Below are positions 2,109 through 63,935 of a stretch of 64,000 nucleotides of DNA, piece by piece. How positions within the stretch are numbered: position 1 is the stretch's first letter; the number at the start of each line of letters is the position of its first letter. This DNA comes from Malacoraja senta. Its lineage: Eukaryota. A program made the position numbers and the translations under genes. The notes under the pieces were generated by a model. It ran no database searches. It was given only the letters and a program-made list of their open reading frames with translations, and was not told the DNA's origin. The DNA is taken from positions 2,232,001 through 2,296,000 of the forward strand of contig CM075988.1 of the NCBI GenBank assembly GCA_038087875.1, given 5' to 3'.

Positions 2109-2119
2109 TTCTGAAGATT

Positions 2120-2220
2120 TGAAGGTCTGAACAAGGGTCTCGACCCGAAACGTCACCCATTCCTTCTCTCCAGAGATGCCGTCTGTCCCGCTGAGTTACT
2201 CCTGCATTTTGTGTCTACCT
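2120..2220 (+). repeat. Penelope-derived terminal repeat with a hammerhead-like core carrying a G8>C change
   Basis: CTGAACAAGGGTCTCGACCCGAAACGTC at 2127-2154, followed by the conserved ACCCATTCCTTCTCTCCAGAGATGC...GAGTTACTCC block seen many times in the window. Confidence 0.7.
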
Positions 2221-3733: not shown

Positions 3734-4755
3734 AGTCATAGAGTGATACAGTGTGGAAACGGGCCCAATCTGCCCACACCGGCCAACATGTCCCAGCTAC
3801 ACTGGTCCCACCTGCCTGTGCCTGGTCCATATCCCTCCAAACCTGTCCTACATGTACCTGTCCAACTGTTTCTTAAATGTTGGGATAGTCTCAGCCTCAA
3901 GTAGGCAGCTGTCTGGCAGGTTGTTCCATGCACCCACCACCATTTGTGTGAAAAAGTTACCCCTGAGATGCCTATTAAATCTTTTCCCCTTCACCTTGAA
4001 CCTATGTCCTCTGGTCCTAGATTCCCCTACTCTGGGCAAGAGACTCTGTGCACCAGATCTATTCCTCTCATGATTTTTACACCTCTATACTATAAGATCA
4101 CCCCTCATTCTCCTGCGCTCCAAGGAATAGAGACCCAGCCTACTCATCCTCTCCCTTTAGCTCGCACCCTCTAGTCCTGGCACCATCCTCGTAAACCTTC
4201 TCTGAACCCTTTCAAGCTTGACAATATCTTTCCTATAGCATGGTGCCCAGACCTGAACACAATATTCCAAAGCAGTCTCACCAACATCTTATACAACTGC
4301 AACATGATCTCCCAACTTCTATGTGTAGGGAAGAACTGCAGATGCTGGTTTAAATCAAAGGTAGACACAATGCTGGAGTAACTCAGCAGGACAGGCAGCA
4401 TCTCTGGAGAGAAGGAATGGGTGACGTTGTGACTCTATTTCAGAAGGGTCTTGACCCAAAACGTCACCCTGTGTCTACTTCCCAACTTTTGTGTCTACTT
4501 CCCAACTTCTATACTCAATACCCTGACTCATGAAGGCCAATGTGTTAAAAAACATTTTGGCCCATGTACCTGCAGCCCTAGATCCCTCTGCTCTAGAGCC
4601 TACTGTTCACTGTGTAGGCCCTGCCCTTGTTAGATGTCCCAAAATGCAACGTCTGACACTTCTCTGTATTAAATTCCAACAACCATTACTCAGCCCACTT
4701 GGCCAATCTATCCAGATGCTGCTCTCATGATTCACAACCATCTTCACTATCTGAA
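3734..4755 (-). mobile_element. 5'-truncated CR1-clade LINE, interrupted by a Penelope-derived repeat at 4323-4499
   Basis: ORF 3848-4039 gives the CR1 C-terminus (RTRGHRFKV...NFFTQMVVGAWNNLP). The insert is flanked by a TCCCAACTTCTAT duplication (4310-4322 and 4500-4512). Confidence 0.85.
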
Positions 4756-7649: not shown

Positions 7650-8260
7650 TGAATGGGGGGATCAGAACAGGATGGACGGGGGGTCGGATCAGTACAGGAT
7701 GAATGGGGGGTCAGTATAGGATGAATGGGGGTAGACAAAAATGCTGGAGAAACTCAGCGGGACAGGCAGCAACTATGGGCAACGTTTCGGGTCGAGACCC
7801 TTCTTCAGACCGTTCCCCCCCCATTCTTCTTGAATGGGGGGATCAGTACAGGATGGATGGGGGGGATCAGCACAGGAGGAAGGGGTGGATCAGTACAGGA
7901 TGAATGGGAGTCAGTACAGTGTGGATCGGAGTGTCTGCAGGATGAATGGAGATCACTACAGGATGAATGAGGGGCTCAGTACAGGATGAATGGTGGGATC
8001 TGTACAGGATGAATGGGGGATCAGTAAAAGATGAATGGGGATCAGGAAAAGATGAATGGGGGATCAGTAAAAGATAAATGGGGGATCAGTACAGGATGAA
8101 TGGGGGGATCAGTACAGGATGAATGAGGCGATCAGTACAGGATGAATGAGGGGATGAATGTGGGGAATGAGGGGATCAGTACAGGATGAATGGAGGAGAA
8201 GTGCAGGATGGATGGGAAGGAGGGTAAGTACAGGATGAATTGGGGGACCAGTGTAGGGTG
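7650..8260. repeat. Minisatellite with a ~21-22 bp unit (GGGGATCAGTACAGGATGAAT), interrupted by a Penelope-derived repeat at ~7730-7810
   Basis: Repeated GATCAGTACAGGATGAAT units are directly visible. Confidence 0.9.
7781..7808 (-). ncRNA. Minimal hammerhead ribozyme motif with a GUU cleavage triplet
   Basis: The minus strand reads CTGAAGA-A-GGGT-CTCG-ACCC-GAAA-CG-TT. Confidence 0.5.
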
Positions 8261-8668: not shown

Positions 8669-11350
8669 GTGCAGCTGCTTCAGACGGCGGAAGGAGGCCT
8701 CCCCCTCCCTCCCTCCCGGCCTCGGCATGCGGGAGGGTTTGTTTTGAAAGCGCCTTTGGCAGAGTGGCAGGCAGCGGCCGCTATCAGGGCGGGCGGGGTG
8801 CGGGAGGAGGAGGAGATGGAGCCGCTTTCGCGGCCGCTGTGCGGGGCCTATCATTCGCTCCGACCATTCGTCACCCTTCACCTAGTATCTTTGCCCCGCA
8901 CAACAGCCGTCGCCGACACAAAATGTCACGTTCCTTTTCTCCAGAGATGCTGCCTGACCCGCTGAGTTACTCCAATTTTTTGTGTCTATCTTCGGTATAA
9001 ACCAGTATTTGCAGTGCCAAGCCGGGCAAAATGACTCGGTGTTTAGGTTGCCCGGCGGCATTTTGGGTGGTCAATGGCACCCGGGCAACCGCTAATTTCG
9101 AGCCCTGTGATAAGATGCCTTGAAATGTGTCTACTAATTGACAAGAGACGAGCTCAGATGCATCGTGTGGTAATGTGTATTGACTGTATCTCTGACCATG
9201 ACTAACATCTTTGGAATGTGACTAAGTGACAAACGCACAGCATAAAAGATCATGCAACTCTGCTCATTGAAGTGGTGGCACAGGGGAAGTCAAGTGTCTG
9301 CTTACTTGACTGATGTGTCCCCGTCACTTTCCGGCTGATGATCAGTAAACCTTGAGTTGGTCTAACTAACCTTTTTGTTAGTTGTCTGTTTGTTAAGTAG
9401 TGAACCTTATCACACATCAGACCTCATCTACTGCACACATTTCTCCCACCACCTGAATCACCCATATCCCTCTCTCCGCCTTTAGATTTCACTTCACTCG
9501 TTCTCTCCTAATCTGGCACCCATTTGTCTTTTCATCACTAGGTTTCGTCATTCCATCCATTTTGCCAATCATCTTTCACCTCACCTGTATCCACATCACT
9601 TGGAAGGCTTTGTCCCACTCCAGCTCTCTTTTCCAGCTTTATGTCCCTCATCTCTATACTCCATCACTTAGGATCCTGACCTAAAAACCTTGTCTGTTCA
9701 TTTCCTCCACAGATGCTGCCTGAGTTTTTCCAGCATTTTGTGGTTTATATGATTTCAGCTTCTGTTTCTTGTGTCAAGACAATTGCATTTAATCTACAAG
9801 CAACAGGAGGATAATGTCGGAGATGTGTGGAATTGGAGACTGAAATTAGATTTTTGAGCTGCAATTAGAACATGGATAGTGTGACCAGTTTTGAACTGTA
9901 TAATGCAATAGCTAGCTTAGGCACAGGCATAATGGGGTTGAATGGCAAACTTCCATGCTTTCAATCTCTATAGATTGACTTGATTAGGTCACGGCAGCCC
10001 CATTTTGTAAGATTAATAGTTTTGATGCATAGTGTTATTAGCTTTCTCAGATCAGGTTGTGTTAGCTCACTATTCATTTTTAAGTTTATCCAATATCTTA
10101 CCAGTTTCATCATGGTTGAACATTAACATCCAACTATTTCTCCTGTATTGTAGCTGCGCAAAGGTGCACCCAGTGTGAAACGTGTCTCCCACACCCGAAT
10201 CCTCTGGTGGCATTGCCAGTTTGATGCCAAGGCCCATGCCTTTCACAGCTCAGTTGAGAGTGCTCAAACATTGTCATATAGTTTGCTTTTTTATTTTTTT
10301 TAATTAATTTTTTATTTATTAGAAGTAAGTACGTTACATTTTGATGGTACCTGTTTACAGGTTCCCAGAATTATTAAAACATTCTATGTACAACTACCTT
10401 TTAAAACATTTTTTAGAAAGAAATGAGAAAGAAAGAAGAAGTGAAGAGTAAAGAGAAGTCTAGTGAGTGTGAAGTAAAGAAAAGAAATGTAAGAAAGTGA
10501 AGCAGAAAGGAGATTCTCCCTCGCCACAAGTCGATGCTTTTTTATGTTCTTAATCATTTTTCGCCCAAACCCAGAATTTTTTAATTTTACAATACTATTC
10601 CACCACATGAATCCACAAGGTCAATAAATGGAGGCCAACTCGTTAAGAATTGGTCTTGTTTATCTATTAGGAGGAGTCTCATTTCTTCCAAGTGGGCAGT
10701 TTCCAACATATTACCAAACCACATTTTGAGTGTTGGTATAGTAGCATTTTTTCAAAATTTAAGTACGAGTTTTTTTGCTGTAATTAAACCATAATTAAAA
10801 AATGAAATTTGGGATATATTTAATTTGTTTCCATCTCCTATTACTCCGAAGATAATCATTTACATATTAGGTTCCATTTTTATCTTAAATAAACTAGTAA
10901 ATATATCAAATATATCACACCAAAATCCATGAAGTTTTGTGCAAGAAACGAAAGAATGTGTGATACTGGCATTTTGAGAAAGACATTTATCACAGATGGG
11001 AGAAATATTTGAATAAAATTTATTCAACCTAACTTTTGAATAATATAATCTATGTAATATTTTAAATTGAATTAAATTATGTCTAGCGTTAATCGAACAT
11101 TTATGTATATATATCAAATACCTCTCCCATGTTTCTTTAGAAATTGTTGACATTAATTCTTTTTCCCAGTCTTCTCTAATTGCCTCTGTTGATGGCAATT
11201 CTCTATTAAGAATACTATTATATAAATATGATATTAATTTTTGTGAGTCCGCCTTAATATTCATTGCTTCTTCCATTGAGTCTATCATTATGCTCTGTAT
11301 TCTTGGTATATATTTTTTTATAAAGTCACATGTCTGTAAATATTTAAAGT

Positions 11351-18600: not shown

Positions 18601-21485
18601 GACCGCAATCTCGCGACTCTATCGGCTGTGCCGCTCACCTCCTCCCCTTGCCCGTTTTTTCCATGATGCCTGTGGAAAAAATCCCCACAGACCCACAGTA
18701 AACGGACACGGAAATACTTCCAAAAAAGTTTATACTTATCTTGTAGTTGGAAACTACAATTCCACTAGAGGAGCTCTGCTCCTCGCGTCCGTTTGCGCCA
18801 ATGCGTCTGACGTAATGACGCGCAGGCGCACTGGCGGGGTTCTTCACGTAGTCACTCACGTGACTCCGAAGTAAAATTCACTAGACTTGGATTTGACACC
18901 ACCCTTCCTGAATTTTATTGATTTGTCTAAATATGAGTCTATAACTCAGTTAAAGTCCCCCCCCCTAGTATTACATTTTGAAAATTATACTCATCTATTA
19001 TATCCATAATTTTCTTTAAAAATTGCGGGTTATCAAAATTTGGAGCATAAATATTTATCAGAGTCAGTGGTGTAGAATAAATTTCTCCCGCCACTATCGT
19101 GTACCTTCCTTCTTTATCAGATATAGTGTTCTTTAATATAAATGGTATATCTTTCCGAATAATAATAGCCGTTCCTCTAGCTTTAGCAGTAAATGACGAG
19201 TGATAAGTTTGGCCTATCCAGTTTGCCCTTAGTCTCATCTGTGTTTGTAGTTTCGTATGCATTTCTTGCAGAAAAGCTATGTCCACATTTAAAGATTTTA
19301 GCTGGGCCATAATCTTGCCCCTTTTAATTGGATCATTCGCACCCCTAATATTCCAACTACAGAATGTGAATCCTCCATTCTTTTTTTCCTTATTATCCTG
19401 CATTGTAAATAGGTTTTGGTAATTTTGCTTCATGTGGTGTAGTTAAGTACCTCAGGCTTTTGGGTATGTGGGTATCATCCCATACTTCTGATGTCATTTT
19501 ACCTCTCCTCCGTATATTGAACCTCCATAAGAAAAAGAGAAAAGTGTGTTGAGAAATAGTGAAGAAAGAAAGAAAAATTGTTAGATAAACCACATAAAAG
19601 TAAATACAAAAAAAAAAGTGAGTTTAAGGTATCAAAAAGGTGATACCCTAAATACAAGAAGCCATCTATGATGGCCAAAAATTTATTGACCTCCGTAGAT
19701 GGAATTATACATTGAGTTCAGCCCCCTAAATACAATGTCATTTATAACTACATGCCATTTCATCTAAATATATCTTAATATATCTAAAATAATAAAAATA
19801 AAAATAAAAATTTCAATAACAAAAATTTATCTGGTCAGACCGAATAAAACAGAAAAAAAAGTTTCAACAATAGAAAGTTATCATCATCATCTTTACTATT
19901 TCAAATATTCTCTTATTTACCCCGATTTTAAACCTTCTATGTTACTTGCTCGGTATCACAGAGTCGTAGAATTGTAAAACATAAAAACACATGCCCTGTG
20001 CCTGTATCCGAATATATTCATCTGTTCCTTAATTACCAGCCTGTTTCAAGGGTTAAATTTCTTATCTTAAATACAACCGACTTCCAGCCCAGACCTCTGG
20101 AACTTTTCCAAATCATTAACGCCTCTTTCTTCACACAGATTTATAATGTTATAGTATTCTTATACCCCTTTTCATTAATTGTAGTGTGTTAGTGTACATC
20201 CTAAATTATATTTCAATTATTTTCCGCCTTATTAACATTATATATCTGTTAATAATAATCATAAGTTTGCTTGTTTTTTGTTTGCATTTAGGTTGGATGA
20301 TTATTAAACCTATTGGTGATTTAATTAAGGTACAAAGTTTCCAAGATAGTTAGTTGGTCATTTATCTGGATAAATGTTTGTGATGATGAATGTTTGTAAT
20401 TCTTAAAGTGTAAAATTTCTGAGGAGGACTTTGGTAGAGTTACTTAAGCCACTTGTAGAATTAGAATATTTGCAATGATGTGTTGAAGTAGTTTAAGACC
20501 ACAAATTCTGGTGAGACAAGAAATTGTGGTGTGAGTTGGTCAGGCTGTGAAAAGTGATGGAATCGTTGAGAATTATCTGTTAGCTGGGGGAGGGCAGAGC
20601 TAAGGTTGTATTGTGGCTGGGTTACCTTAACCTGACCTTGGGTAGTAACTAAAATACACACTGTCTGGCTTCCATCTGTGCAGCTGCGGCTGGTGTGGGT
20701 TTGCTGATCAGCCTACTTGGGGCCATGGTATGGGATTTGCTGTAGGCTTGTCTTTAGGTTATCTGGCTGGGGTTTAAAAAAACATGTTGTGCTACATGAT
20801 GGAATTGCAGCAAGATGTGGGTGTTTGCAGTTTTCACCTGCCCGTAACAGCTGGATTGGAACCTAAAGGAATGCAGACACATACTCACTTCATGAAATTC
20901 TATCCTGATGAGAATGTGTGTGCAGATTTGGTGAGAAATTTTCTTTTAATTTTAACATTCAGCAAAATTTATTGACGCATTTAAATTTTCTGCGACCTGG
21001 CGAGGCCTTCTGGCTTATTTCACCTGTGATCTTTGTGGTTTGAGTTTAGTTTGGCTGTTATCCTAGTTTTTATCGTGATTCTTTGTTATCTTATGGCAAG
21101 TTTCATTGTATTTACTTATTACATTTTTATGTGTGCAGTTTGCAAATTTATGTTGGATAAATGAATTATTCAAGGGGAAAATGTGAGCAGCTAATTTTTA
21201 GATTTTGATTCCCTTTGGTGCATTGTGACCAACAGTATGATAAAGCTTTCTGTTTTGCTCAACTCTGTTTTGGAGAGCGGGAATCTGCTGCATTCTCATG
21301 CCGCTTTTCCATTTCCGGCAAAAGCTGTCTGTGGCCTTATCTATAATAAATAATTTAGATGATGCTTTGGTCCTTTTTGCTTTGAGCTTTTAAGTGTGCA
21401 GCCATAGCTGAATTGGTCCCTGGAGGTTGAAGGATTCGGCTGATCTGCTGCGTCACTCATGAAATCTATCTCTGCCTTTTTGTAG

Positions 21486-23430: not shown

Positions 23431-23557
23431 AGGGTAGCTGATATTATAAAATTCTGGAAGGTTTTTTACTGAGTTTTAGATACTAGACCAGGTGCGGACC
23501 CGTTGGGCACGTCCCCCATGGCAATATTCCACCACTGACCCATAGCCACCAACTGAT

Positions 23558-23938
23558 CAGGGCTTTTTTTCGCTGTTGCCAACTGGGCAACCTAGGCAGC
23601 TTTTTAGGTTGCCAAATGACAGTTTAGGTGGGCATTTAAGATATGTGCATGATGCGTGCTCACTTAGCATGATGCGTGCGATAATGTGTTCGGACGAAAT
23701 GCGTAGTTACCAGTTGGAATTATGCTCAATGAAGTATTCACATATTACTTCTGCTTCAAATAAAGTCACAAACTAAACGTATTCACCAATCAAGACATGA
23801 CATATACAACAATGACATGCAGCAAAATTATAATACGGTATCTTAATTCTTTTTACACGTTGCAATGAATGCAATTTCTATTATTTCTTTCCACTTCCAA
23901 ACAAAAATCTGGTTGGATTATTCAGCGTATGATCAACC
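23558..23938. mobile_element. Second, truncated copy of the left end of the 5352-9107 hAT-like element
   Basis: Colinear high similarity to 5352-5725 (CAGGGCT...GGGCAACCTAGGCAGCTTTTTAGGTTGCC...GTATGATCAACCT). Confidence 0.85.
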
Positions 23939-24382
23939 TTGGTGAGACCAAGTACAGGCTTGGCGATCGCTTCGCACAACACCTCCACTTAGTTTGCAAT
24001 AACCAACCTGATCTCCCGGTGGCTCAGCACTTCAACTCCCCCTCCCCTTCCGAATCCGACCTTTCTGTCCTGGGCCTCCTCCATGGCCAGAGTGAGGCCC
24101 ACCGCAAATTGGAGGAACAGCACCTCATATTTCGCTTGGGTAGTTTACACCCCAGTGGTATGAACATTGGGTTCTCCAATTTCAGGTAGTCCTTGCTTTC
24201 TCCCTCCTTCCACTCCCATTCCCAGCTCTCCCACAGCCTACTGTCTCCGCCTCTTCCTTTCTTTTTCCCGCCCCCCTCCCCGACATCAGTCTGAAGAAGG
24301 GTCTCGACCCGAAACGTCGCCCAGTCCTTCGCTCCATAGATGCTGCCTCACCCACTGATTTTCTCCAGCTTTTTTGTCCACC
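23939..24382 (+). mobile_element. Penelope-like element 3' end: GIY-YIG endonuclease C-terminus plus terminal repeat
   Basis: GETKYRLGDRFAQH...PVAQHFN...RKLEEQHLIFRLGSLHPSGMN (stop at 24189) is the typical PLE GIY-YIG C-terminus. The terminal repeat follows. Confidence 0.9.
24291..24318 (+). ncRNA. Minimal type-I hammerhead ribozyme motif with an intact core
   Basis: CUGAAGA, an extra A, stem II GGGU-CUCG-ACCC, GAAA, palindromic ACGU, and a GUC triplet. It lies about 100 nt after the GIY-YIG stop codon. Confidence 0.65.
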
Positions 24383-24384
24383 AT

Positions 24385-24625
24385 CTATTCACACAAGTTC
24401 TGTTATCCCACTTTCCTCACCCACTCCCTACACATTAGGGGCACTTTTACGGAGACAAGTTAACCTACAAAGCCAATGTGTCTTTGGGATGTGGGAGGAA
24501 ACCCACACGCTTGCAGGGAGAATGTGCAAGTTCAACACAGACAGTGCCCGAGGACAGGATCGAACACAGATCTCTGGCGTGTGAGGCAGCATATCTACCA
24601 GCTGTGCCATTATATATTGTTTTCC
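24385..24625 (-). mobile_element. HE1-like SINE fragment
   Basis: Reverse-complement match to the SINE body at 1645-2108. Confidence 0.7.
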
Positions 24626-24915: not shown

Positions 24916-25384
24916 GTGCAGGAACCTTTTTCAGACCCAACCCAAAACGTTATATTTTCCTTTTGTCCAGAGAATCTGTCTGACCTGTTGAGTAACTCCA
25001 GCTTTTTGTGTCCATCTTTGGTTTAAACAAGCATCTTCCTACACGCACGATACTATATGATAGAACTTTATTAATCCATGGAGGGATTAATAAAGCCACG
25101 CACGCACGAAAAATGGAACCATATAGCGCTATGATTTTTGGCCATCTTACTCAGTCCTCCGCTGAGCAGGCCCCGAGGATTTTTTCCATCGATGAAAAAT
25201 AAAAAAGTTATGATGAAGGTAATGCCCCTTGCGGGGGGGGGGGGGGGCAGGACTATAAAACCCCAGCTGCCTGGACATGACTCAGTTACTCTGCAATATC
25301 GCGAGGGAGAGGCCACGACTGAATCAACTGAACTGTGAGTCTACAATGTACCTTTAATAAATGATTTGATAGCCCTTAATGAAA

Positions 25385-26340: not shown

Positions 26341-28686
26341 TCACTTATTTAAAAGTGCCCCTTCGGCCCATAGGGTCTGTACTAGCCCGGGAAGAGTCCC
26401 TTTGGCCCTTCAGTAAGTATTCCCCCTGCAAGTATTAAACCTCAGCCCAATATTTTTCTCCCTCCCTTCATTGGCTCCCTGTGAGATCCAGGCCAGGATA
26501 GACTTTCCTCCTTCATTGCTGTGATCAGCAGAAAAAGATGAAAAATGTCTAAAATTGATTCTCCACCCTCTCCCCCTTCTCCCTCACAGAGTCTCTAACC
26601 TGTTTTGGACAGAATTTCTGGCAGTTTCTGAGCTGCCAGCGCACCAGATAGATAGCGTGCATTAGAATAAAAAAGTGATTGCCAACGCAGCAAAACTTCT
26701 GGAACTCCATGGTTCAAAAGAGTATTTTAATTATGGATACGTTTTTTACCACATTACATTATAGGATATCTGCAGCTCTTATTTAGGAATGTTGCTAATG
26801 AGGTGAGAAATTCCAAATGCAGTTTATTAACGGTGATAGTTTTTGAAGATGGTGATTATGGATAATTAAATGGCATTTGGAAAATAATGAATCAATAAAT
26901 GAAATCCAATGTGTACTTGCTAAAGATAAATCTGGCTTGAAGAAGTAGCAGGATAAAGTGTGTAAAGATAAATTCAAGACTTTTGGGACTATATACAGGG
27001 AAAATTGTCACCAACTAAAGTGCTGTAATACTTATTTGGGATGTGCAATGTCATTTGCATGGAGAAATGGAAAGGCTTGATCTTCATGGAGCAGAGCAGA
27101 ACATATTTTTGAAACTTTCAAGATTATAATGGGTTTCAGGTGAAGCATATTTTCAGTGGCTGAAGGATTATAATTTCAGGAAACATTACGTGAAGAGGGG
27201 CCAATCAATATATTGATTTGGATGCATCTCCTAAAAGGCTGGTTGAAGCAGATTAAATTGTACATAAACTTTCAAAATTGTACATAAACATCAAACATCT
27301 ACAGAAAACACTCCTTCCAGAAGAGACAATGTACTTGCACTACATTTAGGATAGTGTACAGATATTTGCTGAACATATCACTGCCTCAATGAAAATGTGG
27401 AAAAAAAAATTGGAAGATGCCCTCTTGAACACTACCTTATCTCCTGAATTTCTGGTTGTCCATTTCTTTTAATTATTGGTTACATTTCCTCCCTTGTATT
27501 GAACAAAGAAAGCTTGATTAAGCAATGTATTTACACGTGTAGTAATTATAAGATGCCTCATTCTTGAAACAAAATTGGCAATCAAGCGCAGCAATTAATT
27601 AGGAAGGCAAATACGATGTTAGACTTTATTGCAAGGATGTTGGAATACCAAAGTATGGAGATCCTGCTACAATGGTATGTTACCTTGATGAAATAGCACC
27701 TGAAGTACCACTTATTTTGGAGGCAGCTGAGAGAAGGTTCACTAGCTTGACTTCTGAGATGATTCCCGAGGGTTCTTGACAGTAAATTCAAAAATTGTTG
27801 TGTTGTATGTTGGGGGAATCTAGGATTAATTTCAGAATAAGTGACCTTTCAGTTTATGATAGAGATGGGGAGGATTTTTTTTTTTAGATCTGAGGGTTGT
27901 ATGCCTTTGTCATGTGAAAAATGAGGCTAAGTTAGACAATTTTTTGGACTTCAGTGTTTTTTAGACTTGTAAGAAGAAATGCTGAATAAATTGAAAAGTG
28001 AGCAAGTAAGTGGGAGAGCAGTGGAGAAGTATCAGAGATAATGAAATCAACACATCCCATCTAGATTTGGCAACTGCTCTGCCCAAGGCCATAAGAAACA
28101 GCAGAGAGTTGTGAATGCAGCCCAATCTATTATGCAAGCCAATCACACAGCTTTCCCCACCTCCATCCCACCTAACAAACTCCATCCTTCACACTAACTT
28201 GGGAAGGCAGCTAAGGTAACCAAGGATCATGCACACCCTGGAGTTTCTCTCTTCTCCCCTCTCCCATCAGGCTTAAGATAAAAAAAAAGCTTGAAAGCAT
28301 GTATCATCAGATTCAAGAACAGCTTCTTCCATGCCCTTGTACAGAATTCTAGATCTTCCAATCTACCTCGATGTGGCCTAGCACTTTTTATTTAATCTGT
28401 ACTTCTGTGAATGTAATACAATCTTTTGCACAAACTTCAAAGTGCTTGAGGAACTTTGTGTTGGGCAGCTTCTGTGGAGGGAATGGACTTGTGACACTTT
28501 GGGGCAGGATGCGTTTTCAGACTCAACAATTTGTGTTGCTCTGCTGTTTCTTGTGACTCTTATGCACGCCATCTTCTCTTTTGCATTGCCATATATGGTA
28601 TGAATTGCCTAGATAGCAAAACAGTTTTGCATTGTATCTTGGTGCATGTGATAATAATATACCAATACTGTGAGCACTGAATGAAC

Positions 28687-29352: not shown

Positions 29353-29967
29353 CCAGTACCAACCGAGAGTCTGAAGGAGGGTCTGGACCCGAGATGTCAC
29401 CTGGTCATGTTCTCCAGAGATGCTGCCTGACCCGCTACTGCACCACTTTGTGTCCTTTTGTGTGTTAACCAGCAATGTAGTTGCTTGTTGTTTGTACTAT
29501 TTATACAGTGATAATCCCTTACTCGACTATGACAGACATTCGGCAATAACGGACGCCGCCTCCCCCCCCCTATTGTCTGTTATAATGAGGGTTTATAATG
29601 AGGCCACAGCCAGACATAACAGTTTTTATCCATGAGTAGTAGCTCTATTCAACAGCCAAAAATCTGTAGCCTCCCTTTGATCTGGTATTTCATTGGTTCA
29701 CATGTTCAATGGTGTTTTACCATTAATGTTTTATTATTATTAATATTTACTGTTTTCTGAGTCATTCGTAACGGTCACTGTATGTCATGTTGTTACTTGT
29801 GGGCGGAGCATCAAGGCAAATTCCTTGTATGTGAATACTTGGCTAATAAACTTATTTACTTTACTTACTTACTTTATTTTGAAAACAGTTATCATGACTT
29901 GGGCCGCAATCATCTGGTCTAGGTTCCTAATCCTGGTTCAAGCTGTGTACCAACTGTTGATATTTTA

Positions 29968-30676
29968 CTGTGTAGGAAGGAACTGCAAATGCTGGTTTAA
30001 ACCGAAGATAGACACAACGGGACAGGCAACATCTCTGGATAGAAGGAATGGGTGACGTTTCTGGTCGAGACCCGTTTTCAGACTTAGTCAGGGGAGAGGG
30101 AGATATTGAGATAAGGTAGTATCAGATGTGAAAACAAGACAAATGGGATGGATATCAGGGAAAATGTAGAATAGATCATTGTTGGTTAGGAGAAGGTAAC
30201 AATAAAGCAAACAGAGATAATGTAAACGAGCACAGTCAGACTGGTCGGAGAACTGGGAAGGGGGGAGGGATGGGGAGATTGGGAAAGCAAGGGTTACTTG
30301 AAGTTAGAGAAATCAATATTCATACCGCTGGAATGTAAACTGCTCAAGCGAGATATGTTATCAAAACAATGTTTTGTATGGAGCCAAGTCATGGACTACC
30401 TACAGCAGTCACCTGAGAGCCCTGGAACAAAACCATCAAAGATCCTTACGAAAGATTCTGAGGATGTCACTCTGACAATGGAGGAGGCCCAGGACAAAGG
30501 TCAGTGTGGGAGGGGGGAGTTAAAGTGTTTAGCAACTTTGAGATCAGGTAGGTTTAGGCGGACTTAGCGGAGGTATTCAGCAAAACGATCGCCGAGCCTG
30601 TGCTTGGTTTTGCTGATATACAGGAGTCCACACCTGGAACAGCTGATACAGGTTGGACGAGATGCAAGTGAATCTT
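29968..30676 (-). mobile_element. Penelope-like 3' fragment with terminal repeat, containing a templated insertion at 30357-30466
   Basis: Colinear with 52445-52990 and with the reverse complement of 23939-24382. Confidence 0.8.
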
Positions 30677-30861: not shown

Positions 30862-31680
30862 CTCATCATCATCAGCAGTCACTCGAAACGAGTATGACTG
30901 TCATCTCCTCTCCATAGGGTCGTCTGTAGAGGCCGATCCGCGATCTACTCACCTTGGTGCAACGTGGGCAATGGAGACTGGCGGTGGTTGGTAGTTGTCG
31001 AGCCCCCTTCTCTCTCTCCTTATGGTGCTGTTGCTTTGTCTCTGCGACACAGCGTATCTCCGTTTCATGACGTGCAGCTCCTTCCTGCAAGGATTTCCTC
31101 CAGAAGAGCCTGTCCAGTGCAATTTTCTCCCAGTTGCTCGATGTGAGCTGGAATTTCTTCAAAACTTCTTGATGTTGTCCTTGAATGGTTTCTTTGGCCC
31201 GCCGGGGGCTCGCCGACCTTCCTTCAATTGAGAGTACAGGATTTGTTTAGGGAGACGTGTGTTGGACATGTGGATGACATGGCCAGTCTATCGAAGTTGG
31301 TGCTGCATTATTGTGGTGGTGATTCTGGTCATGTTGGCTTCCTCCAAAACGCTGATGTTGGTGCGTTTGTCCTACCAGCTGATCCTCAGAATCTTTCGTA
31401 AGGATCTTTGATGGTTTTGTTCCAGGGCTCTCAGGTGACTGCTGTAGGTAGTCCATGACTTGGCTCCATACAACAGGGTGGGGAGGACAACCGCTCTGTA
31501 GACCAGCAGTTCTGTTTGAGCCTTTAGGTCTTGGTCATCCAAGACTCTTTTCCTGAGTCTGGCATAGGCTCTGCTGGCACAACTCAGGCGATGGTTGACC
31601 TCAGAGTCGATGTCAGCTTTTGAGGAAAGAATGCTGCCAAGGTAGGGGAAGCGGTCAACGTTTTCAAGAGTGCCATCCTA
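30862..31680 (-). mobile_element. 5'-truncated RTE-clade LINE
   Basis: Minus-strand translation: LENVDRFPYLGSIL...VYRAVVLPTLLYGAKSWTTY...LRKILRISW...RLPKQILYSQL...DRLFWR, with a (TGA)n tail at ~30862-30874. Confidence 0.9.
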
Positions 31681-32862: not shown

Positions 32863-33167
32863 GGGCCTGTCCCACTGTACGAGGTAATTCAAGAGTTCTC
32901 CCGGGTTTTCCCCTGATTCGAACTCGGAGAATGTCCGTAGCGTGTCCGTAGGAGTTCGTGGATGTCTCGTAGCGGCTCGTACGAGTAACGGGAGGTACTC
33001 GGGAAATTCGATCAACTCGTGACATTTTTTCAACTGTGAAAAATGTCCACGATTTAAAAAAAACTCTTGATGAAGAAAATAGTTACTTTTTACGGACATT
33101 CTCCGAGCTCGAATCAGGGGAAAACGCGGGAGAACTCTTGAATTACCTCGTACAGTGGGACAGGCCC
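32863..33167. mobile_element. MITE (305 bp) with ~77-bp TIRs, flanked by TTAA (PIF/Harbinger- or Kolobok-type)
   Basis: GGGCCTGTCCCACTGTACGAGGTAATTCAAGAG... / ...CTCTTGAATTACCTCGTACAGTGGGACAGGCCC, with TTAA at 32859-32862 and 33168-33171. Confidence 0.9.
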
Positions 33168-33182
33168 TTAAAGTGGAAATAT

Positions 33183-37792: not shown

Positions 37793-38005
37793 AAGACACA
37801 CAGTGCTGGAGTAACTCAGCAGTCAGTCAACATCTCTGGAGAACATAGGTGACGTTTCAGGTTGGCACTATCTTCAGATTCTGAAGAAGGGTCCTGAGCT
37901 GCAATGTCACCTACCCATTTTGTCCAGAGATGCTGCCTGATCCGCTGAGTTACTCGAACACTGTGTTTTTCTGTAAACCAGCATCTGCAGTTCCTTGTGT
38001 CTACA
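37793..38005. repeat. Degenerate palindromic Penelope-derived repeat (two terminal repeats back to back)
   Basis: GCTGGAGTAACTCAGC...GGTGACGTTTC...TCTTCAG followed by CTGAAGAAGGGTC...GTCACC...GCTGAGTTACTC. Confidence 0.75.
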
Positions 38006-39402: not shown

Positions 39403-39802
39403 GAGATGGGACATCCCCTCCCCCCCTCGTCTCCATCCAAGGACCCAAGCAGTCTTTCCAGGTGAGGCAGAGGTTCACCTGCACCTCCTCCAACCTCATC
39501 TATTGCATCCACTGCTCTAGGTGTCAACTGCTCTACATCGGTGAGACTGTGCAGGCTTGGCGATCGCTTCGCCCAACTCCTCTGCACAGTTCACATTAAC
39601 CAACCCGATCTCCCAGTGGTTCAGCACTTCAACTCCCCCTCCCATTCTGTATCCGACCTTTCTGTCCTGGGCCTCCTCCCCCCACCCCCCCCCCCCCACC
39701 ACCACATCGGTCTGAAGAAAAGTCTCGACCCGAAACGTCACCTATTTCTTCGCTCCATAGATGCTGCCTCACCCGCTGAGTTTCTCCAGCATTTTTGTCT
39801 AC
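39403..39802 (+). mobile_element. Penelope-like GIY-YIG fragment plus terminal repeat with a hammerhead-like core (39712-39739)
   Basis: FTCTSSNLIYCIHCSRCQLLYIGET (the GIY-YIG motif), RLGDRFAQ, PVVQHFN, and CTGAAGAAAAGTCTCGACCCGAAACGTC. Confidence 0.9.
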
Positions 39803-40129
39803 CTGAGATGGGAAGACCTAAATGCTCTTAGCAGTATTTGCGATGTAACCAATTGAACTTTTATGATAATGTTTTGTATGTCTTAGACTGGCAATAGAAT
39901 CTAAGACATGGTTCCACCTAGAGGCCATTGCCAAACTGGAACCTGGCAGTCCAGCACACACCCAATGATACCTGACTACACAAGCCAGATTCAGATTGTC
40001 ACTTTGACAATGACTATGAATGAGGTTGGTGCAGATCCAGAATCATTAAGGTGGTGGGTGCAATCAATCAAAATGCAAACTGTGCCCTTACTCTCTTTGG
40101 GGAGTTATTGAAAGGCTCCTGGGGTGCTG

Positions 40130-43435: not shown

Positions 43436-46400
43436 ACAACTGATCTGTACTTTTGCCATGCTCTTGTGCATCTGTCCTCTGATGGTTCAGTGCTGATCTC
43501 CACTGCTATTCTCTGCTGTTGTGTTCTGCATTATTTTGAGAGAATAGGCAGAGGCAGCACTGTGAACGCTGTAAAATGGCTATTTCCCTCTCACCTTCTT
43601 GGGTCAAGGCCACAAGCGAGGGATCTGACTGTTTAAAATCTGGCCTGGAAAGCTCAACAGCTGAACCCAGCAGCAGGAAATAAAGTAGGTGAGTGAATGC
43701 ATTTTAAATTGGCTGCTGTGTCAGGGGCTGGCTAATGAGAACTTGTAGCTGAATCTAGACTGTGGACTGAACATTGGACCTCTCTACGATGCAGGCAAAA
43801 GGATTGTGATATTTGTGAGTAGAGGTATCGTGATAATAATCTGTGTTTGGAAGAAGGTATTATTGGTAATGCGATGGAATCTCAACTTATCACCCAGAAT
43901 ATCATCAAACCCAACTAGGTATCTAAGATGCACAGTATTGTTGAAAACTATAATGGTTGATTGTGGATAGCCAACAGTTAGCACAGGGACAGTTCAGATG
44001 CTTGTCTCCTGGCTTTATCAGGTGGAATGGATCCCACTGAGGATATATGTGTGACATTTTCATTTGCGAGAGCTGTATGAAATCTATTAATGGTAATGGG
44101 ATTTACAGAATTCCCCTTTTAACAGAATCAGTGCCTGTGCTGACAGTCTGTTGTGCAGATTGCTGCTTTAATTCACTGCCAACTCTCAGTGATTTACAGT
44201 TCAGCTTCGCAATCACTTATTCTGCAGTGGTGGGAAAACGTTTTGAAGCTGGACTCTTTCAGTTTGAAGCATTGTTTTGGGTCTGAATATGAAGGCTTGA
44301 ATATTTGAACTACAATTACTAACTCGTGCTGGAGAGGCAGTGAAACTTTGCATGGGAATCATCCAAACCTGTCCTGAGTTCCACAGTAAAGTAGCTGTAG
44401 ACATGGGGCACTGGTGGATCCCCACATATCTCAGTGGACAAAGTTCTTTTTACATGGTGAGTTCATCGAAATCTGCATTTATCAAAAATTACTAATAATT
44501 GAAAACGGTGTTTTTGGCATCTTCAAACTATTTATCTCTTAATCTTCAATGGATAGCCTGCGAACAAAGCTTAACACTGTATCTTGGTACAGGTGACGGT
44601 AATAAACCAATACCAAGATGGTTGTTTATCCAGTTGTCTCCGAGATTTCAATTTTGACCAAAAGTCACAAGTATCCAAAATGTCAAGGTTATCCGAAAGA
44701 TCAAAAGAGCAGCATTATTGGCATACCAAATATGACTGTAATTATCACAACACACACATCCAAACAGACATGCACTATACATTTGTTTTTCATGCAATGG
44801 ATTGGTTAGTACAGGCTAATAAATAACGTTTGCTCATTTCATTAATCAATTGATCTGAACAATTTCATTGGTGTTGGTCATATTTTGATACTAGCTACAA
44901 TTATAATGCTTTGCTAATTTGGCATTTTGTTTAGCTGCAGAAGATTTTACAACTAACCTGCTGCTGGCAACTGCTATGGTTGTTAATTTTGCCAGTGGAT
45001 TTATTAATAGAAATTGCTGTGTGTTGACCGAGCAATAGCAGTTCTCTTTATTTCCACTTCCAGAATACCTTTCAAACTCTCACATTCAACTAGCACTGTC
45101 CATTTATAGATCCTCGTTGGCTTCTGAAATGATCTATGGTTTTTAAGACAAATACGATGTACTAATGCTCGCAAATATGAGAAAGCAAAATGTCAGAAAC
45201 AGCAGGTTCAGTTTTGTAATGTTGGGATTGTTCCCAGGTTATGGCAGTGTTCCTTTCCTGTGAACTGTTTGTAACCCATAAACTGAGTTCCTATAAGGCA
45301 GGAAATACTTGCAATCCTGCAGCTGCTGGTAAATCCATCCTGCTGATTTCATGAACCTTTGTTCGTATGTACGGTCTGTGCATAAGTTGTGCACCTGCAA
45401 CTTGGGAGAAACTTGTAATCAGTTTAAGCTTCAGGGTTCGGTTCTTTTGCTCAAATTGTGCGGATGCGTCAGCATTCCAAATTTAACCGCGAATTTAAAC
45501 ATGTAGATGAATATGTTATGCATCTCCGGCTCCTCACTGAAATTCTCTGTTTCTCTGGAAGTGTCTTGAGATCTGAACTATGCTGAGGAATGTGCGACAG
45601 AAGGTTAACGTGTGTACAGGTGTTACACAGTAAAGCTCTTTGGTACTGGGCTGGCAGCCATTCTAGACTATTACATGTTATTCCTGTTAATACCACAAAA
45701 TACATTTAATTTGATTTATTTTTAATATTGTTCAGTATAATATAATTTCTGGTGCATCTTGTAAAATGAAGTGGAATATGGGAAACAGTGTTCTGATGGG
45801 TTTAACAAGAGAGCAGGAAACATCACCTGCTCAGCCAGGTAATGAATCGGGGATTTCTGAATATTTGGTCAATGGATTATCAGAGTTTTGCAGTAATTGA
45901 ATAGGTGGTAATGTGCGTGTTAATTTTCAAGGTCAGTTTATTGTTACATGTACCAATTAAGGTACAGTAAAATTTGAGTTACCATTTTGTACTCGAGGTT
46001 ACTAGTTATTCACATATTAGATTTATATTGTTTTGGAACAGCTGTCAGAGCCAGAGTATAAGGATATCTGGATGTTATTTTTCCTGAATCTGCTTTGCAA
46101 TTTAATGGCATTCAGCCAGTAGTGATAGTTGAACTTAAATAAGAGAATGAATTTTAAGGAATAGTTTAGCAATGGTTCAGAATTAGTTCTGACAATAAAA
46201 CATGGGAACAACAGTAGGCCATTTGTTCTGCAAAACACAATGTGCTGGAGGAACTCAGCAGGTCAATGAACAGGTGATGTTTTGGTTCTGGTCCCTTCTT
46301 CAGATTGATTGGATTGGGACTTTTCTTTGAACCTGTCTTGTTTTGCTAAATTGTGTTAAGCTGCATCTCAATCTAATTTAGACCTATATTTTAGCAGAAT

Positions 46401-47600: not shown

Positions 47601-48721
47601 TACTGCTTACCTTTTTGCGTTCCCAACTGTATCCAATCTATAGATGAAAACGCTTACATTTTTGCCTCCAGAGCCACAATTAGTCCTTTCTCAGTCATCA
47701 ATCTCTGGGATGCAGATGATAAAGACATAATGCTTTCCAGCCTGTTGTTGATTCTTGCACCAGATCTTGTATCTGCTACTGCTACATGGCGCTGCTTCTG
47801 ACGATTAGGTTCTATGAACCTTCCCCTTTGCTCTGGCTATTGTACTTGAGTTTTACTTGATTGTATTTATGTATTGAGGGAGGCGGACGAGGCTCTGGAA
47901 ATATGGCCCGGCTGGAGCCAGCGGATCCGCTACCATAGCTGCCTCCTGAGGCTGACTTGTGTAGGAAGGAACTGCAGATACTAGTTTAAACCGAAGATAG
48001 ACAAAAAGCTGGAGTAACAGGCAGCTTCTCTGGAGAGAAGGAATGGGTGACGTTTCAGGTCGAGACCATTCTTCAGAGGCCGACTTTGCAGGTCGTTATC
48101 TCAATCCCCTGATGGAGGCGGACCATTCCAGTACCATTCTGCTCCTCTGAGAGGCCCGACAGGTGAGCCCGCCCACCACATTTTTGGTAGATTAGGCAAA
48201 TCTTGGGTTGGCGGGGAAAGTGGCTCCTTGACCCCGCAGGCGGCCACCAGTCCCACCCTCATTGGGATTTCCAAGGACAACTTGTTAACCGGCGCCCGGG
48301 CTACCTGTCCAAGAAATGCAATTTTTGCCATAAATTTAATTTACATTTAACATTTGGTTATTGTTTTTAGTTTCTCGCAGTCCATGGTGCTTTAGAGAAA
48401 CGGGAGGGTCTTTAGCAGATCAGAGGTATATAGTAACATTATTGCTTGAGCTCGGTTGGCCTGCCAAAACAATAATCTGGCAAGGCTCAAGAACCAAGGG
48501 TGCTGGAAAACCAGTAGTAGACCTGTACTAGACATGTGCCACCAGTACTGCCTGCGTATTGTGCTAATTTCATTGACGGCATAAGGGATACATTATCGTC
48601 TTCCTCTCCCCGGTCAACGTCCCCAGTATCAAGAATGATCAAGTTTTCATAGTTCCAATATGTGAGTCACATAACTATATGCCTGACTCTAGACTCCTAA
48701 AACTCATGTTACTTGACTCCG

Positions 48722-52444: not shown

Positions 52445-52992
52445 TGTTTAAGAAAGAACTGCAGATGCTGGAAAAATCAAAGGTAGACAAAAAATGCTGG
52501 AGAAACTCAGCAGGTGAGGCAGCATCTATGGAGAGAAGGAATAGGCGAGGTTTCTGTTCAAGACCCTTCTTCAGACTGATGTTGGGGGAGGGTAAAAGAA
52601 AGGAAGAGGCGGAGACAGTAGGCTTTGTGGGAGAGCTGGAGTGGGGAAGGAAGGAGAAAGCAAGGGCTATCTAAAATTGGAGAAGTCATTGCTCATACCA
52701 CTGGGGTGTAAACTACCTAGGCGAAATATGAGGTGCTGTTCCTCCAATTTGCACTGGGCCTCACTCTGGCAATGGGAGGAGGCACAGGACAGAAAGGTCA
52801 GGTTGGGAATGGGAGGGGGAGTTCAAGTGCTGAGGTCACCGGGAGATCAGGTTGGTTAGTACGAACTGAGCGGAGGTGTTGGGCGGAGGTGTTGTAGAGA
52901 AATTGATACCTGGAACAGCGGATGCAGTAGATGAGGTTGGAGGAGGTGCAGGTGAACCTCTGCCTCACCTGGAAATACTGATTGGATCCTTG
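52445..52992 (-). mobile_element. Penelope-like 3' fragment with terminal repeat
   Basis: Reverse complement of the GIY-YIG/terminal-repeat sequence at 23939-24382 and 39403-39802. Confidence 0.85.
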
Positions 52993-57015: not shown

Positions 57016-57744
57016 CAATGGGAGTTTGCCACAGAGGATTTAGATGGTTCTTTCAGCACTGTAGGGTGTATAGATCATATATCCTTGAGGATAGACACAA
57101 AAAGCTGGAGTAACAGGCAGCATCTCTGGAGAGAAGGAATAGGTGACGTTTCGGGTCGAGACCCTTCTTGATATATCTGGATGAAGACAATACTATTTTC
57201 ATGGATGAAATAGTAGCGATGTTACGAAACTTACCTTCAGCGGCGCTGCAGTTCTGCCACTGGCCGTGTGCGCGACTTTGGCTCCTTTGAGGGGGGGATT
57301 AAAATCCAGTTTTCTACTGCCTGTCGGCGGTGGACTTCCTCGGGCTCGCGAGACAATTTAATAATTATATTAAAATAAAAAGCGACTTCTAACGCCCTCA
57401 ACGCCTACAAAGTGACGGATCGCAAGAACGGGACAAAACAAAGGGTAAGTCGTTTATTTTACATATAAACTTGCTTCTTGGGATGGCTTTAATCTAATGT
57501 GAAAATGTGATTTGGGCCCCATACGAACCGGCAGTGTTTTTCCTGCTGATATGGAGTTCAAATTCACCGCAAATGCAACGTTCCAATCGATCGTGTTCCA
57601 GAAAAACCCACTCGCAAGATGATTTAAATGCTTTTTTTTGGACAATCATGTCATAAGAGCATCTAAATCGTCTATATTTTGTGTTATTGTCTATCCATGG
57701 TCAATATTTTTACACTAAATATCAGTTTTAGTCCCATGTAGTAG

Positions 57745-60934: not shown

Positions 60935-62589
60935 AAATTGTAATTTATTTTCCTATCTGTTACGGACTTACAGCATATAATACAATAATATTAAAGTTCT
61001 GATCTTGAGAATATCACAATTTTGAATTTTCAAGGCAGTCTGGGTGTTTATTACTATTTCTGTCACAACGATCAATTTTGTAATCAACTACAATTAGGTA
61101 ATTAACTAATTATATGCTTTAATTTCAGGTTATCCAAGTAAGATGTTTTATATTTGTTTCAGAATGCTTCAATCAATATTAAATGAAAATTTCATTCAGT
61201 TCTCTTAATTTTTAAGAAAGTTATGGGCTTTTGACTTCTCGATCACAGCTTTTGTGTTAAGTCATTGGAAAAGCAATAGGGAACAAGATGCTAATTTCCA
61301 AGTATGAAAATGGCCATAACTTTTTTAATACTGAAGGCTAGAATACTAATCTATTTAGCCCTCCCTTACATACACATTATCGAATACTATATTTTTTGTT
61401 GCTGTTTCACTGAATTATGTATATATAATTCTGAATCATATTCGGGTTATTGGGCAGTACTAGCACATACGATATTCAGAACTCTTGTCAATCGAACTAA
61501 GGTGGAAATTTGAACATATTGGGTGATTTTTTTAATTTTTGTTTATTGGTACTCCTTTGGTGACTTTTGGAGAAGCTTTCATTGAGTGTATGCAGTGACT
61601 GAAGTTACTTTATATTGAGCAATAAACATTCTGCAAGTTATAACATCTTCAAAAAGAGAAAGCTTGTGTATATGGAGTATATTGAACTTGCAGTTCAAAT
61701 TTTGGACATTTCTAATAATTTACTTTAAAACTTGGTCATAACCTTTTTCAATATTGTTTCGATTTAGGATGTTCTGATTATTGCAGTATTTATGTTCACA
61801 TAGTCAGGTTGTATTTGTAGTGCCTTGATCGTTTAATTCCTGTTTTCAGGCTCAGTCAGTTGCTAATCATTTCCTTAGTCAGTGGCCTGAAGGTTACATT
61901 TCCCTCAAAGTTCAATTGTGTGATTAGAAATTGAGGAAACTCTCTAGATGTATCCTCAAACCAGTTCCTCCATTTTGTGCCAAATCCTGATGTTTCAGGC
62001 CATGGCTTCCTGTTATTCAACAAGTAGCTGCCATAACTTAGTGGGCGCACCATCGCTGTAATTTAGAAAACAATAGGTTCATATTCCAAAGATATTTGAG
62101 CACATGATGTTGACCAATACTTCAGTATCCTGACCACGGGATGTTAAAGTGAAGACCCTTTTGGCCTCTAGTGGGTAGATAGGGTCCCAAAGCATTGTTT
62201 GACTTTTATAGAGGACTATTTGGGAATTGTGAAGGAAAATTCACTCATTGGAGGTTGTGTAATTGATATGTCTTTTTAAAAGTATTTGAAAGTCTGGATC
62301 AGTGAAACTTTCTTGCAATAAAATTCTGTTTATAGTCTCCTTCTCCATACATCCCCAAAATATTTCTCAATATTCAAAAATAGCTTAAAGCAATATTTTT
62401 GCTTTGATAACCCTTAAATTCCTGCTAGTAGGTCTAAATCAAAACCTCTGTGAAGAACTTCACCTGTCTTCCAGTGAGAAAGAATGATACATGGATTTTC
62501 TACAGTAGATTTTAGTTAAAACGGTATATCTGGCCAATTTATCTTTTATCATTTCAATACAAAATGACGAGACTAAGGTTTAGTTTAAG

Positions 62590-62900
62590 AAGGAACTGCA
62601 GATGCTGGTTTAAACTGAAGATAGACACAAAGCTAGAGTAACTCAGCGGGACTGGCAGCATCTCTGGAGAGAAGGAATGGGTGACGTTTCGGGTAGAGAC
62701 TCTTCTTCAGACTGAAGAAGGGTCTCGAACCGAAACGTCACCCATTCCTTCTCTCCAGAGATGCTGCCAGTCCCGCTGAGTTACTCTAGCTTTTTGTGTC
62801 TATCTTCGGTCTGAAGAAGAGTCTCTACCCTAAACATCACCCATTCCTCTCCAGAGATGCTGCTAGTCCCACTGAGTTACTCCAGCATATTGTGCCTTTC
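62590..62900. repeat. Palindromic Penelope-derived repeat with back-to-back hammerhead motifs and a third tandem copy
   Basis: 62614-62710 and 62712-62810 are near-perfect reverse complements. Cores lie at 62683-62710 (-), 62712-62739 (+) and 62811-62838 (+). Confidence 0.9.
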
Positions 62901-62902
62901 TT

Positions 62903-63935
62903 TAGTTTAGTTTATTGTCATGTGCACCTAGGTACAGTGAAAAGCTTTTCTTCCGTGCTAACCAGCCAGCTGAAAGACAATACATGATTACAATCGAGCC
63001 ATTAGCAGTGTACAGACACATGATAAGGGAATAGCTTTTAGTGCAAGGTAAAGCCAGTAAAGTCCGATCAGAGATAGTCCGAGGGTCCCTGATGAGGTAG
63101 ATAGTAGTTCAGGACTGTTCTCTGGTTGCAGTAGGATGGTTCAGTTGCCTGAAAACAGCTGGGAAGAAACTGTCCCTGAATCTGAAGGTGTGCGTTTTCA
63201 CACTTCTATATCATTTGCTCGAGGGGAGAATAGGGATTGGCCAGGGTGCGACTCGTTCTTGATGATGCTGTTGGCCTTACTGAGGCAGAGTGAGGTGTCA
63301 ATGGGTGAGAGGTTGTTGTGTGTGAATGTCTGAGCTGCGTCCACAATTAGCTGCAATTTCCTGCGGTCTTGAAAGGAGTTGTTCCCAAACCAAGCTGTGA
63401 TCTAGCCCGATAAAATGCTTTCGACAGCGCATCTGTAGATGTGGGTGAGGGTTGTTGGGGACATGCCGAACTTCCTAAGCCTTCTTCGGAAGTAGAGGCG
63501 TTGGTGTGCTTTCTTGATCGTTGCTTTAATATGGGTGGTCCAGGAGAAGTTGTTGGTGATAGTGACTCCTAGTAATTTGAAGTTTTGAACCATCTCTACT
63601 TTTGCGCCGTCAATGCAAACTGGGGTATGTGTCCCGCTTCACTTCCTGAAGTCAATCACTATCTCCTTTGTCTGGCAGACATGCGAGAAAGGTTGCTGTC
63701 TTGACACTGGGATACGAGGTTCTCGATCTCCTTCCTGTACTCCGATTCATCATGATTTGATATCTGGCATACAATGGTGGTGCCGTCTGCGAATTTTTAA
63801 ATTGAATTAGATTTATACAAGGCTGCACAATCGTGGGTGTACAAGGAGTAAAGGGGCTGAGAACGGATCCTTGTGGAGACCAGTGTTGAGGATTATCGTA
63901 GAGGATAATTTGTCCCCTATCCTTACTGATTGGGG
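62903..63935 (-). mobile_element. 5'-truncated Rex1/Babar LINE
   Basis: PQGSVLSP; TKEIVIDFRK; FKLLGVTITNNFSWTTHI...KKAHQRLYF.RRLRKFG...YRCAVESIL; 3' hairpin, GACAATAAA and (ACTAA)n. Confidence 0.9.

Follow-up and report, generated by a model that had tools for sequence, protein, structure and literature searches.

The most frequent short repeat in this stretch of skate DNA (the window: 64,000 nucleotides of Malacoraja senta contig CM075988.1) is probably the hammerhead-bearing terminal repeat (pLTR) of a Penelope-like retrotransposon (PLE), its scattered copies being dead, 5'-truncated insertions made from uncut RNA. The parent element likely belonged to the Neptune clade, as judged from its relatives and from the vertebrate host. 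The one unusual feature of the family is that its 5' ends are focused at the front edge of the ribozyme, a feature for which we found no counterpart in the portions of published PLE descriptions available to us.

Copies of the repeat in the window

A fuzzy search allowing up to 7 edits returned 16 cores in the window, and a profile built from 13 window copies returned 21 arms at E<1e-4. Because copies were first found via their core, this census is biased toward core-bearing ends, a bias that the profile search reduced and did not remove. Self-BLAST depth places the repeat first among the window's short repeats, the rank already given to it in a first-pass annotation of the same DNA, and with its long copies it covers about 3.7 kb (5.8% of the window). 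All 12 variant or decayed positions named in that annotation were recovered by the fuzzy search (its 4441 corresponding to 4438). The list was right as far as it went but incomplete: the fuzzy and profile searches gave further copies at 37851-37877 (-), 46276-46303 (-) and 28438-28522 (-), a minus arm at 4331-4444, and partial copies starting at 8914, 9670 and 24934. Most copies had been said to lack a Penelope ORF, in agreement with our count (17 of 21 without an ORF remnant). The core at 24291 (+) is linked to a GIY-YIG endonuclease frame, as proposed, but is not the sole core of this kind, there being four in all. Most of the copies outside this group are stumps of ~95-130 nt, fold-backs or a tandem. 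The features are listed below, with starts and ends numbered from C3 of the core.

23939..24189, plus strand: C-terminal half of the GIY-YIG endonuclease ORF of a PLE, truncated at the 5' end, with its stop at 24187-24189
24190..24382, plus strand: pLTR with pyrimidine-rich spacer, hammerhead and 3' part to +91, no tail
24289..24320, plus strand: minimal type-I hammerhead motif, core 24291-24318
39423..39804, plus strand: truncated PLE end with an internal deletion and a 9-nt target duplication; both internal cysteines are kept in the GIY-YIG remnant, and stem II of the core at 39712 is broken
52445..52992, minus strand: truncated PLE end; GIY-YIG remnant, decayed core 52547-52574, tail
29969..30675, minus strand: truncated PLE end of a second subfamily; decayed core 30054-30081, tail, GIY-YIG remnant broken by a 92-nt insert
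7730..7810, minus strand: stump from -2 whose complete motif (core 7781-7808) has GUU and a 3-bp stem I; the core is followed by a 13-nt gap, and the copy sits within a 22-23 nt minisatellite
62583..62909, both strands: fold-back plus tandem unit with 10-nt target duplication; minus arm with tail (core 62683-62710) and plus arm (62712) 1 nt apart, second plus arm at 62811 with broken core
37794..37998, both strands: older fold-back unit, cores head to head around a 3-nt centre, tail on one arm only
4322..4471, both strands: fold-back unit with 13-nt target duplication; minus arm with tail from -1, short plus arm from +4
2125..2220, plus strand: stump starting at -2, G8 mutated, 10-nt target duplication, 13 nt of filler
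29368..29489, plus strand: older stump starting at -3, tail, decayed core
47958..48077, minus strand: stump starting at -1, tail, 10-nt deletion shared with the 57086-57172 copy
57086..57172, minus strand: stump starting at about +1, same 10-nt deletion
46230..46305, minus strand: old decayed stump starting near -2
28438..28522, minus strand: very old stump starting at -2/-3
8914..9018, plus strand: partial copy starting inside stem II (about +14), tail
24934..25036, plus strand: partial copy starting at about +10, downstream of a SINE-like fragment
9670..9743, plus strand: old decayed copy with a pyrimidine-rich upstream stretch, outside the short-arm count

The insert in the endonuclease remnant of the 29969-30675 copy is one arm of a perfect 92-nt inverted pair (30374-30465 and 31382-31473, 916 nt apart). 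The window also holds a SINE-like piece in a perfect 56-nt inverted duplication (35677-35732 and 36416-36471, 683 nt apart) and three MITE-like units with near-perfect inverted ends of 50-82 nt (14121-14428, 32858-33172 and 41598-41805). Remnants of non-LTR retrotransposons were recognized by RT/endonuclease domains at 10860-13526, 18939-19442, 48922-49995, 57787-60268 and 63405-63638, and by repeat homology at 5997-6968.

The hammerhead motif and its descent

The core at 24291-24318 (+) reads CUGAAGA-A-GGGU-CUCG-ACCC-GAAA-CG-UC, exactly as first described. Stem I has its 5' arm at 24289-24290 and its 3' arm at 24319-24320, stem II pairs 24299-24302 with 24307-24310, and the cut is predicted to fall after 24318. 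This core and the one at 7808 (-) carry the whole feature set of PLE minimal hammerheads (CUGANGA, an extra base, a stem II with G10.1-C11.1, GAAA, a palindromic 15.2-16.2 and UH), and the extra base after A9, the G10.1-C11.1 pair, the palindromic ACGU and the 2-3 bp stem I are all seen as the first-pass annotation had stated. Helix I falls in the short class (2-5 bp): the core at 24291 has 2 bp and that at 7808 has 3 bp. A third stem I pair forms in 4 of 15 aligned window copies. Two details needed amendment: the second core called intact, 7781-7808 (-), is a complete motif but has the triplet GUU rather than GUC (still NUH), and stem II, given as 4-5 bp, has 4 bp. Metazoan PLE terminal repeats are known to carry minimal hammerheads of the form CUGANGAH-G..C-GAAA-N-palindrome-UH, in thousands of copies per genome that are mostly single and have been linked to truncated PLEs (Cervera and de la Pena 2014, PMC4209133, in the parts available to us). 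The motifs described here follow the same consensus as single dispersed copies, and their stem lengths, 2-3 bp for stem I and 4 bp for stem II, lie toward the lower limit of the range given in those parts.

GIY-YIG remnants lie upstream of four cores, at 24291 (+), 39712 (+), 52574 (-) and 30081 (-). The closest relatives of the 23939-24189 frame are two Leucoraja erinacea proteins (77% and 74% identity), and full-length proteins have C-termini that align with the remnants at 39423 and 23939, which show the C-terminal GIY-YIG domain and CCHH motif of such elements. The hammerhead lies where PLE pLTRs carry it, downstream of GIY-YIG in the four linked copies; at 24291 the stop at 24187-24189 is 101 nt before C3, close to the spacing of about 100 nt originally noted. 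A search with the protein of a relative returned proteins of 750-950 aa, and an RT together with a GIY-YIG domain at the C-terminus was present in 6 of 7 long relatives scanned. The long relatives carry a CX4CxxC linker, as do the skate relative P0002 and the locus L002 described below. Since a CX2-5CxxC linker is the mark of Neptune and Nematis PLEs in the sections of PMC8557442 available to us, these full-length relatives would place the family in Neptune or Nematis. The core-linked copies in the window are truncated before they reach the RT-endonuclease linker, and no RT or intact ORF was found in any of the window's PLE copies. An older decayed PLE fragment covers the linker region at 4816-5062 (+), with no same-strand core found downstream, and a 386-nt repeat of unassigned kind (5341-5726 and 23548-23939) adjoins the 5' end of the PLE fragment at 23939. 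One further protein, P0024, is a PLE RT-endonuclease fused to N-terminal C2H2 zinc fingers and may be a gene-prediction chimera; compared with solved structures, it gave only zinc-finger matches among the 60 listed of 197.

Relatives in other organisms carry the motif at the same place. When a metagenome collection was searched with a pattern in which the core and stem II pairs 1-2 were fixed, 118 loci were returned, drawn from 7 of its 64 parts. Stem II reached at least 4 bp in 88 of 120 pattern matches (shuffled mean 20, maximum 32), and stem I at least 3 bp in 57 of 120 (shuffled mean 14, maximum 27). A homologous endonuclease lies upstream on the same strand at nine loci, L002 included, and in the four relatives with clean ends (L002, L058, L006 and L077) the core lies 83-95 nt past the stop, against 101 nt here. 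Across the endonuclease-linked relatives, A-U or C-G replaces U-A/U-G at the first pair of stem I, and C-G/A-U replaces G-C/U-A at pairs 3-4 of stem II. Compensatory helix changes are also seen across 95 distinct motifs, in which stem II pairs 1-2 were fixed by the search pattern. None of 8 pairs changed in a compensatory manner among the 15 aligned window copies, as expected for decaying copies of a few masters. Conservation at non-CpG cells was 185/194 in the core and 721/826 downstream; the copies had been picked by their core, so this difference was not weighed as evidence. Searches of viral and metagenome contigs for loci seeded with the endonuclease protein found no relative, and the motif pattern had no match in viral contigs. 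Among three genome-contig matches, L001 and L003 were rejected as hammerheads, being without stem II and chance-like, and L002 is a real PLE end with a hammerhead (1501-2467, minus strand) in a contig of a prokaryote genome bin, likely as eukaryotic contamination.

Insertion structure and the front edge of the core

The 3' ends of the copies fall into two classes, at about +91 and at +118-127, the longer of which corresponds to the optional PLE tail and matches its published length of 30-40 nt. Three head-to-head fold-backs (4322-4471, 37794-37998 and 62583-62810) have different centres, respectively overlapped, 3 nt and 1 nt, and in two of the three the tail is present on only one arm; the single head-to-tail pair in the window is 62712/62811, with a period of about 99. 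Of 14 units, five share a flanking word of at least 9 nt, in four cases positioned as a target duplication would be, compared with 2 of 300 random pairs. The window thus displays the traits of endonuclease-bearing (EN+) PLEs, namely an optional tail, inverted 5' copies, partial tandems and target duplications of variable length. As far as the sections available to us go, Neptune EN+ PLEs (Craig et al. 2021, PMC8557442) have in common with this family a C-terminal GIY-YIG with two internal cysteines, the linker (seen here in the relatives), 5' truncation, partial tandems, an inverted 5' copy and an optional 30-40 nt tail, and the available part of PMC3846280 also describes PLE insertion forms matching the window's units. 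Unlike those elements, the window is without RT or intact ORF, and its 5' truncation is focused at the ribozyme front edge. A tree of 15 copies has three weakly supported groups, of which two mix long with short copies; an AU test did not reject monophyly for the short ones (p=0.26). The 10-nt deletion common to the stumps at 47958-48077 and 57086-57172 would be consistent with possible re-amplification of some short copies.

The 5' boundary was assessed on 16 short arms, that is, the 21 arms minus the four endonuclease-linked copies and the one old copy with upstream sequence. Thirteen of the 16 start at -3 to +1 and the other three at +4, +10 and +14, with none of the 16 starting at the cut site (+28). 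When fewer units had been counted, 7 of 12 fell in a single 7-nt window, for which the chance bound is ~1e-5; some of the bias from finding copies by their core remains. Contigs of four public runs likewise depart from the element into unrelated sequence at 24287-24289 (512 and 505 such contigs in the X19 run, with an agreement of about 0.3); contigs departing at 24286 run on into the spacer of the second subfamily. No loose end at 24319 was seen among the 24 rows listed of about 1,600. The last base of the loose-end consensus before 24288 is T or A rather than G; a G directly precedes the match in all five non-palindromic arms that start at -2/-3. Motifs of other organisms have a weaker focus, with 3 of 40 copies that have family mates losing homology within 4 nt and 2 of 17 fold-back centres lying within 6 nt. 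Given starts at the front edge and none at the cut site, we infer that uncut RNA was copied and that copying ended at the base of stem I.

Splicing was considered as a source of the boundary, with an intron from a donor-like site at 24185/24186 to an acceptor-like CAG at 24289, as in Drosophila Penelope. No such joint was present among the 15 listed of 230, AG stands at that place in only 2 of 95 distinct motifs from elsewhere, and the idea is unlikely. Separately, contigs of X19 and X1 contain head-to-tail tandems of the bare core of ~38 nt, with joints from 24321-24323 back to 24285-24289; these have the geometry needed by a dimeric hammerhead and are absent from this window. In X1, a loose-end consensus at 24325 points to a sister subfamily whose stem II loop differs and which has a U-G pair and the triplet GUU.

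An insertion route can be proposed by analogy with the Anolis Poseidon element PAc (Frangieh et al. 2024, PMC11167929). In the parts of that work available to us, the 30-40 nt tail arises because the RT can start at two internal sites, the template is predominantly uncut RNA, and insertion in vitro does not require the hammerhead, which cuts only when the element's protein is present. PAc belongs to another clade, and its ORF begins in stem II; a term search of three supplements of the same work found no text on 5' ends. In the skate, the element's RT-endonuclease would nick the target, and reverse transcription would start internally on the RNA, either about 65 or about 95 nt past the cut site; the choice between these two sites would decide whether the tail is present. 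The RT would read through the uncut ribozyme, usually halting 1-3 nt beyond the core, and the product would be joined to the flank, opposite a second copy (forming a palindrome) or to a previous copy (forming a tandem). Our leading but tentative reading, to which we give slightly less than even weight, is that the stop is the real 5' end of a short template RNA, set either by a start site or by trimming as far as the base of stem I. It is doubtful, though worth stating, that skate Neptune elements produce a short uncut RNA of 95-130 nt whose 5' end is the first hammerhead base pair (a start site or nuclease stop), which would serve as the main insertion template and make the stumps and palindromes a SINE-like family.

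Alternative readings and cleavage activity

Taken alone, the motif is weak evidence of a ribozyme: a strict descriptor requiring a stem II of at least 4 bp matched twice in the window, against 0-2 matches per dinucleotide shuffle (30 shuffles, 9 matches in total), so that the two matches by themselves are only modestly above chance, and an Rfam search gave no hammerhead family at the gathering threshold and none at E<=10 on 24150-24450. The best predicted fold is not a hammerhead, and the window copies do not covary. Given the Rfam silence and weak descriptor excess, context decides. Chance is excluded by the fixed position after the GIY-YIG stop together with compensatory stem changes in related elements, and the motif also fits the published consensus exactly, including features outside the descriptor (text and Fig. 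S3 of PMC4209133, in the parts available); a look-alike without ribozyme ancestry is thus largely refuted and highly improbable. The first-pass annotation had suggested a retrozyme-like family. A non-LTR retrozyme, with tandem units cut by dimeric hammerheads, circularised and reinserted, which would put cleavage sites into host RNA, shares with the window copies a non-coding nature, a type-I hammerhead and kinship to pLTRs (PMC7229834; 10.64898/2026.07.22.740005, the latter in part), and the latter source records retrozymes in one chondrichthyan and traces the origin of retrozymes to pLTRs. The head-to-tail pair (period about 99) and the core mini-tandems in X19 and X1 contigs, and thus in related genomes, point the same way. 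However, in the parts of these sources available to us retrozymes are tandem units of 150-450 bp with mostly canonical ribozymes, expressed as circles, whereas the window units measure 95-130 nt, stand single or head to head and bear a minimal motif rather than a canonical type-I one (with a helix I of about 6 bp and contacts between loops 1 and 2). In the sole head-to-tail pair the second core is broken, so that the window has no two consecutive complete hammerheads in tandem; its two complete motifs are on opposite strands, and no copy begins or finishes at the cut site. The short copies group with GIY-YIG-linked copies and carry a tail and fold-backs, which are PLE insertion signatures. A retrozyme origin is therefore very unlikely, and we regard the skate family as a further case of the class known since 2014.

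The front-edge ends themselves admit two other accounts. The stumps could form a SINE-like non-autonomous family, in which an RNA of 95-130 nt, transcribed from stumps or palindromes from an initiator-like TCAGT, is re-mobilised by the PLE protein. The 5' end fixed in 13 of 16 arms, the deletion common to two stumps and the unrejected monophyly of the short copies all fit this account. The sequence TCAGTCT just before and at the core matches the initiator consensus. An extra G before a junction is a hallmark of a copied cap, and would suit the G preceding the five non-palindromic -2/-3 arms, but the loose-end consensus before 24288 is T or A. Start sites have been reported in PLE pLTRs (PMC2377424 and PMC3846280, both seen in part). 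Against a family of its own, the stumps are spread over three or more sequence groups, with GIY-YIG-linked copies also present in two of these, the palindrome centres differ and were therefore built separately, and the GGT form is also found in the long copy at 39712; on balance we consider the account unlikely. Somewhat less unlikely is that no special RNA end existed, and that strand switching at the palindrome TCAG-T-CTGA over the core start produced the fold-backs, the solo stumps being fold-backs that collapsed or aborted. At 62710/62712 the centre is this very palindrome, the 13-nt filler at 2125 looks like the beginning of an inverted arm, and palindromes at inverted PLE junctions have been interpreted as self-priming (in the available part of PMC3846280). 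Yet the 37877/37881 centre is 3 nt and the 4443 centre overlaps the core, neither being the native palindrome, and most solo stumps are without an inverted arm. The preferred reading remains that of truncated PLE insertions made from uncut RNA.

Cleavage of host RNA by the genomic copies is unlikely, given how few motifs are complete, how unfavourable the dimer fold is predicted to be and how poorly, or protein-dependently, published PLE hammerheads cleave. The core, the 4-bp stem II and ACGU are all kept in only 2 of the 15 aligned copies, 24291 (+) and 7808 (-), on opposite strands. A single host transcript would thus include no more than one complete motif. In the best predicted fold the core pairs with sequence just past the cut site. 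An alternative helix can form within 24294-24331, where post-cut sequence is complementary to the 5' core and stem II strand, and it would sequester the core. The modelled active dimer of the two complete motifs lies 25-30 kcal/mol above the best alternative fold, and in motifs from elsewhere the median gap is 20 over all 110 and 16 over the best-formed 39; the energy model is without tertiary terms, and only the ranking counts. We share the earlier doubt about monomer activity, stem I having 2-3 bp. Minimal PLE hammerheads cleave poorly even as dimers in the available parts of PMC4209133, and dimer cleavage has been described by Lunse et al. (as given in the review PMC6765202). It is likely that the ribozyme of the parent element would function only as a dimer and with protein help. 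The placement of the copies in a host intron found no backing: the 225 frames scanned, of 307 of at least 62 aa, held no host exon and only retroelement-type domains (most left-out frames overlap known repeats, and short exons could be missed).

Significance for skate elements and for PLEs

Hosts of PLE minimal hammerheads in PMC4209133 include fish Neptune, Poseidon and Xena elements, coelacanth and Xenopus; no cartilaginous fish was seen in its Table S1 or Fig. S3, in the portions available to us, and a literature search found no paper on a shark or skate PLE hammerhead. Skates thus join the lineages with minimal hammerheads in PLEs, and a very common skate repeat is explained, which aids repeat annotation. 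The role of the PLE hammerhead is described as an open question in the available parts of PMC8557442 and PMC11167929. With insertion ends that cluster at the front edge of the ribozyme and never fall at its cut site, the high-copy skate repeat provides a natural data set backing the uncut-template result obtained in vitro, and the pile-up at the front edge makes the origin of the 5' end directly testable. If the hammerhead region does set the end of the RNA, it would give the unexplained PLE hammerhead a role other than cleavage.
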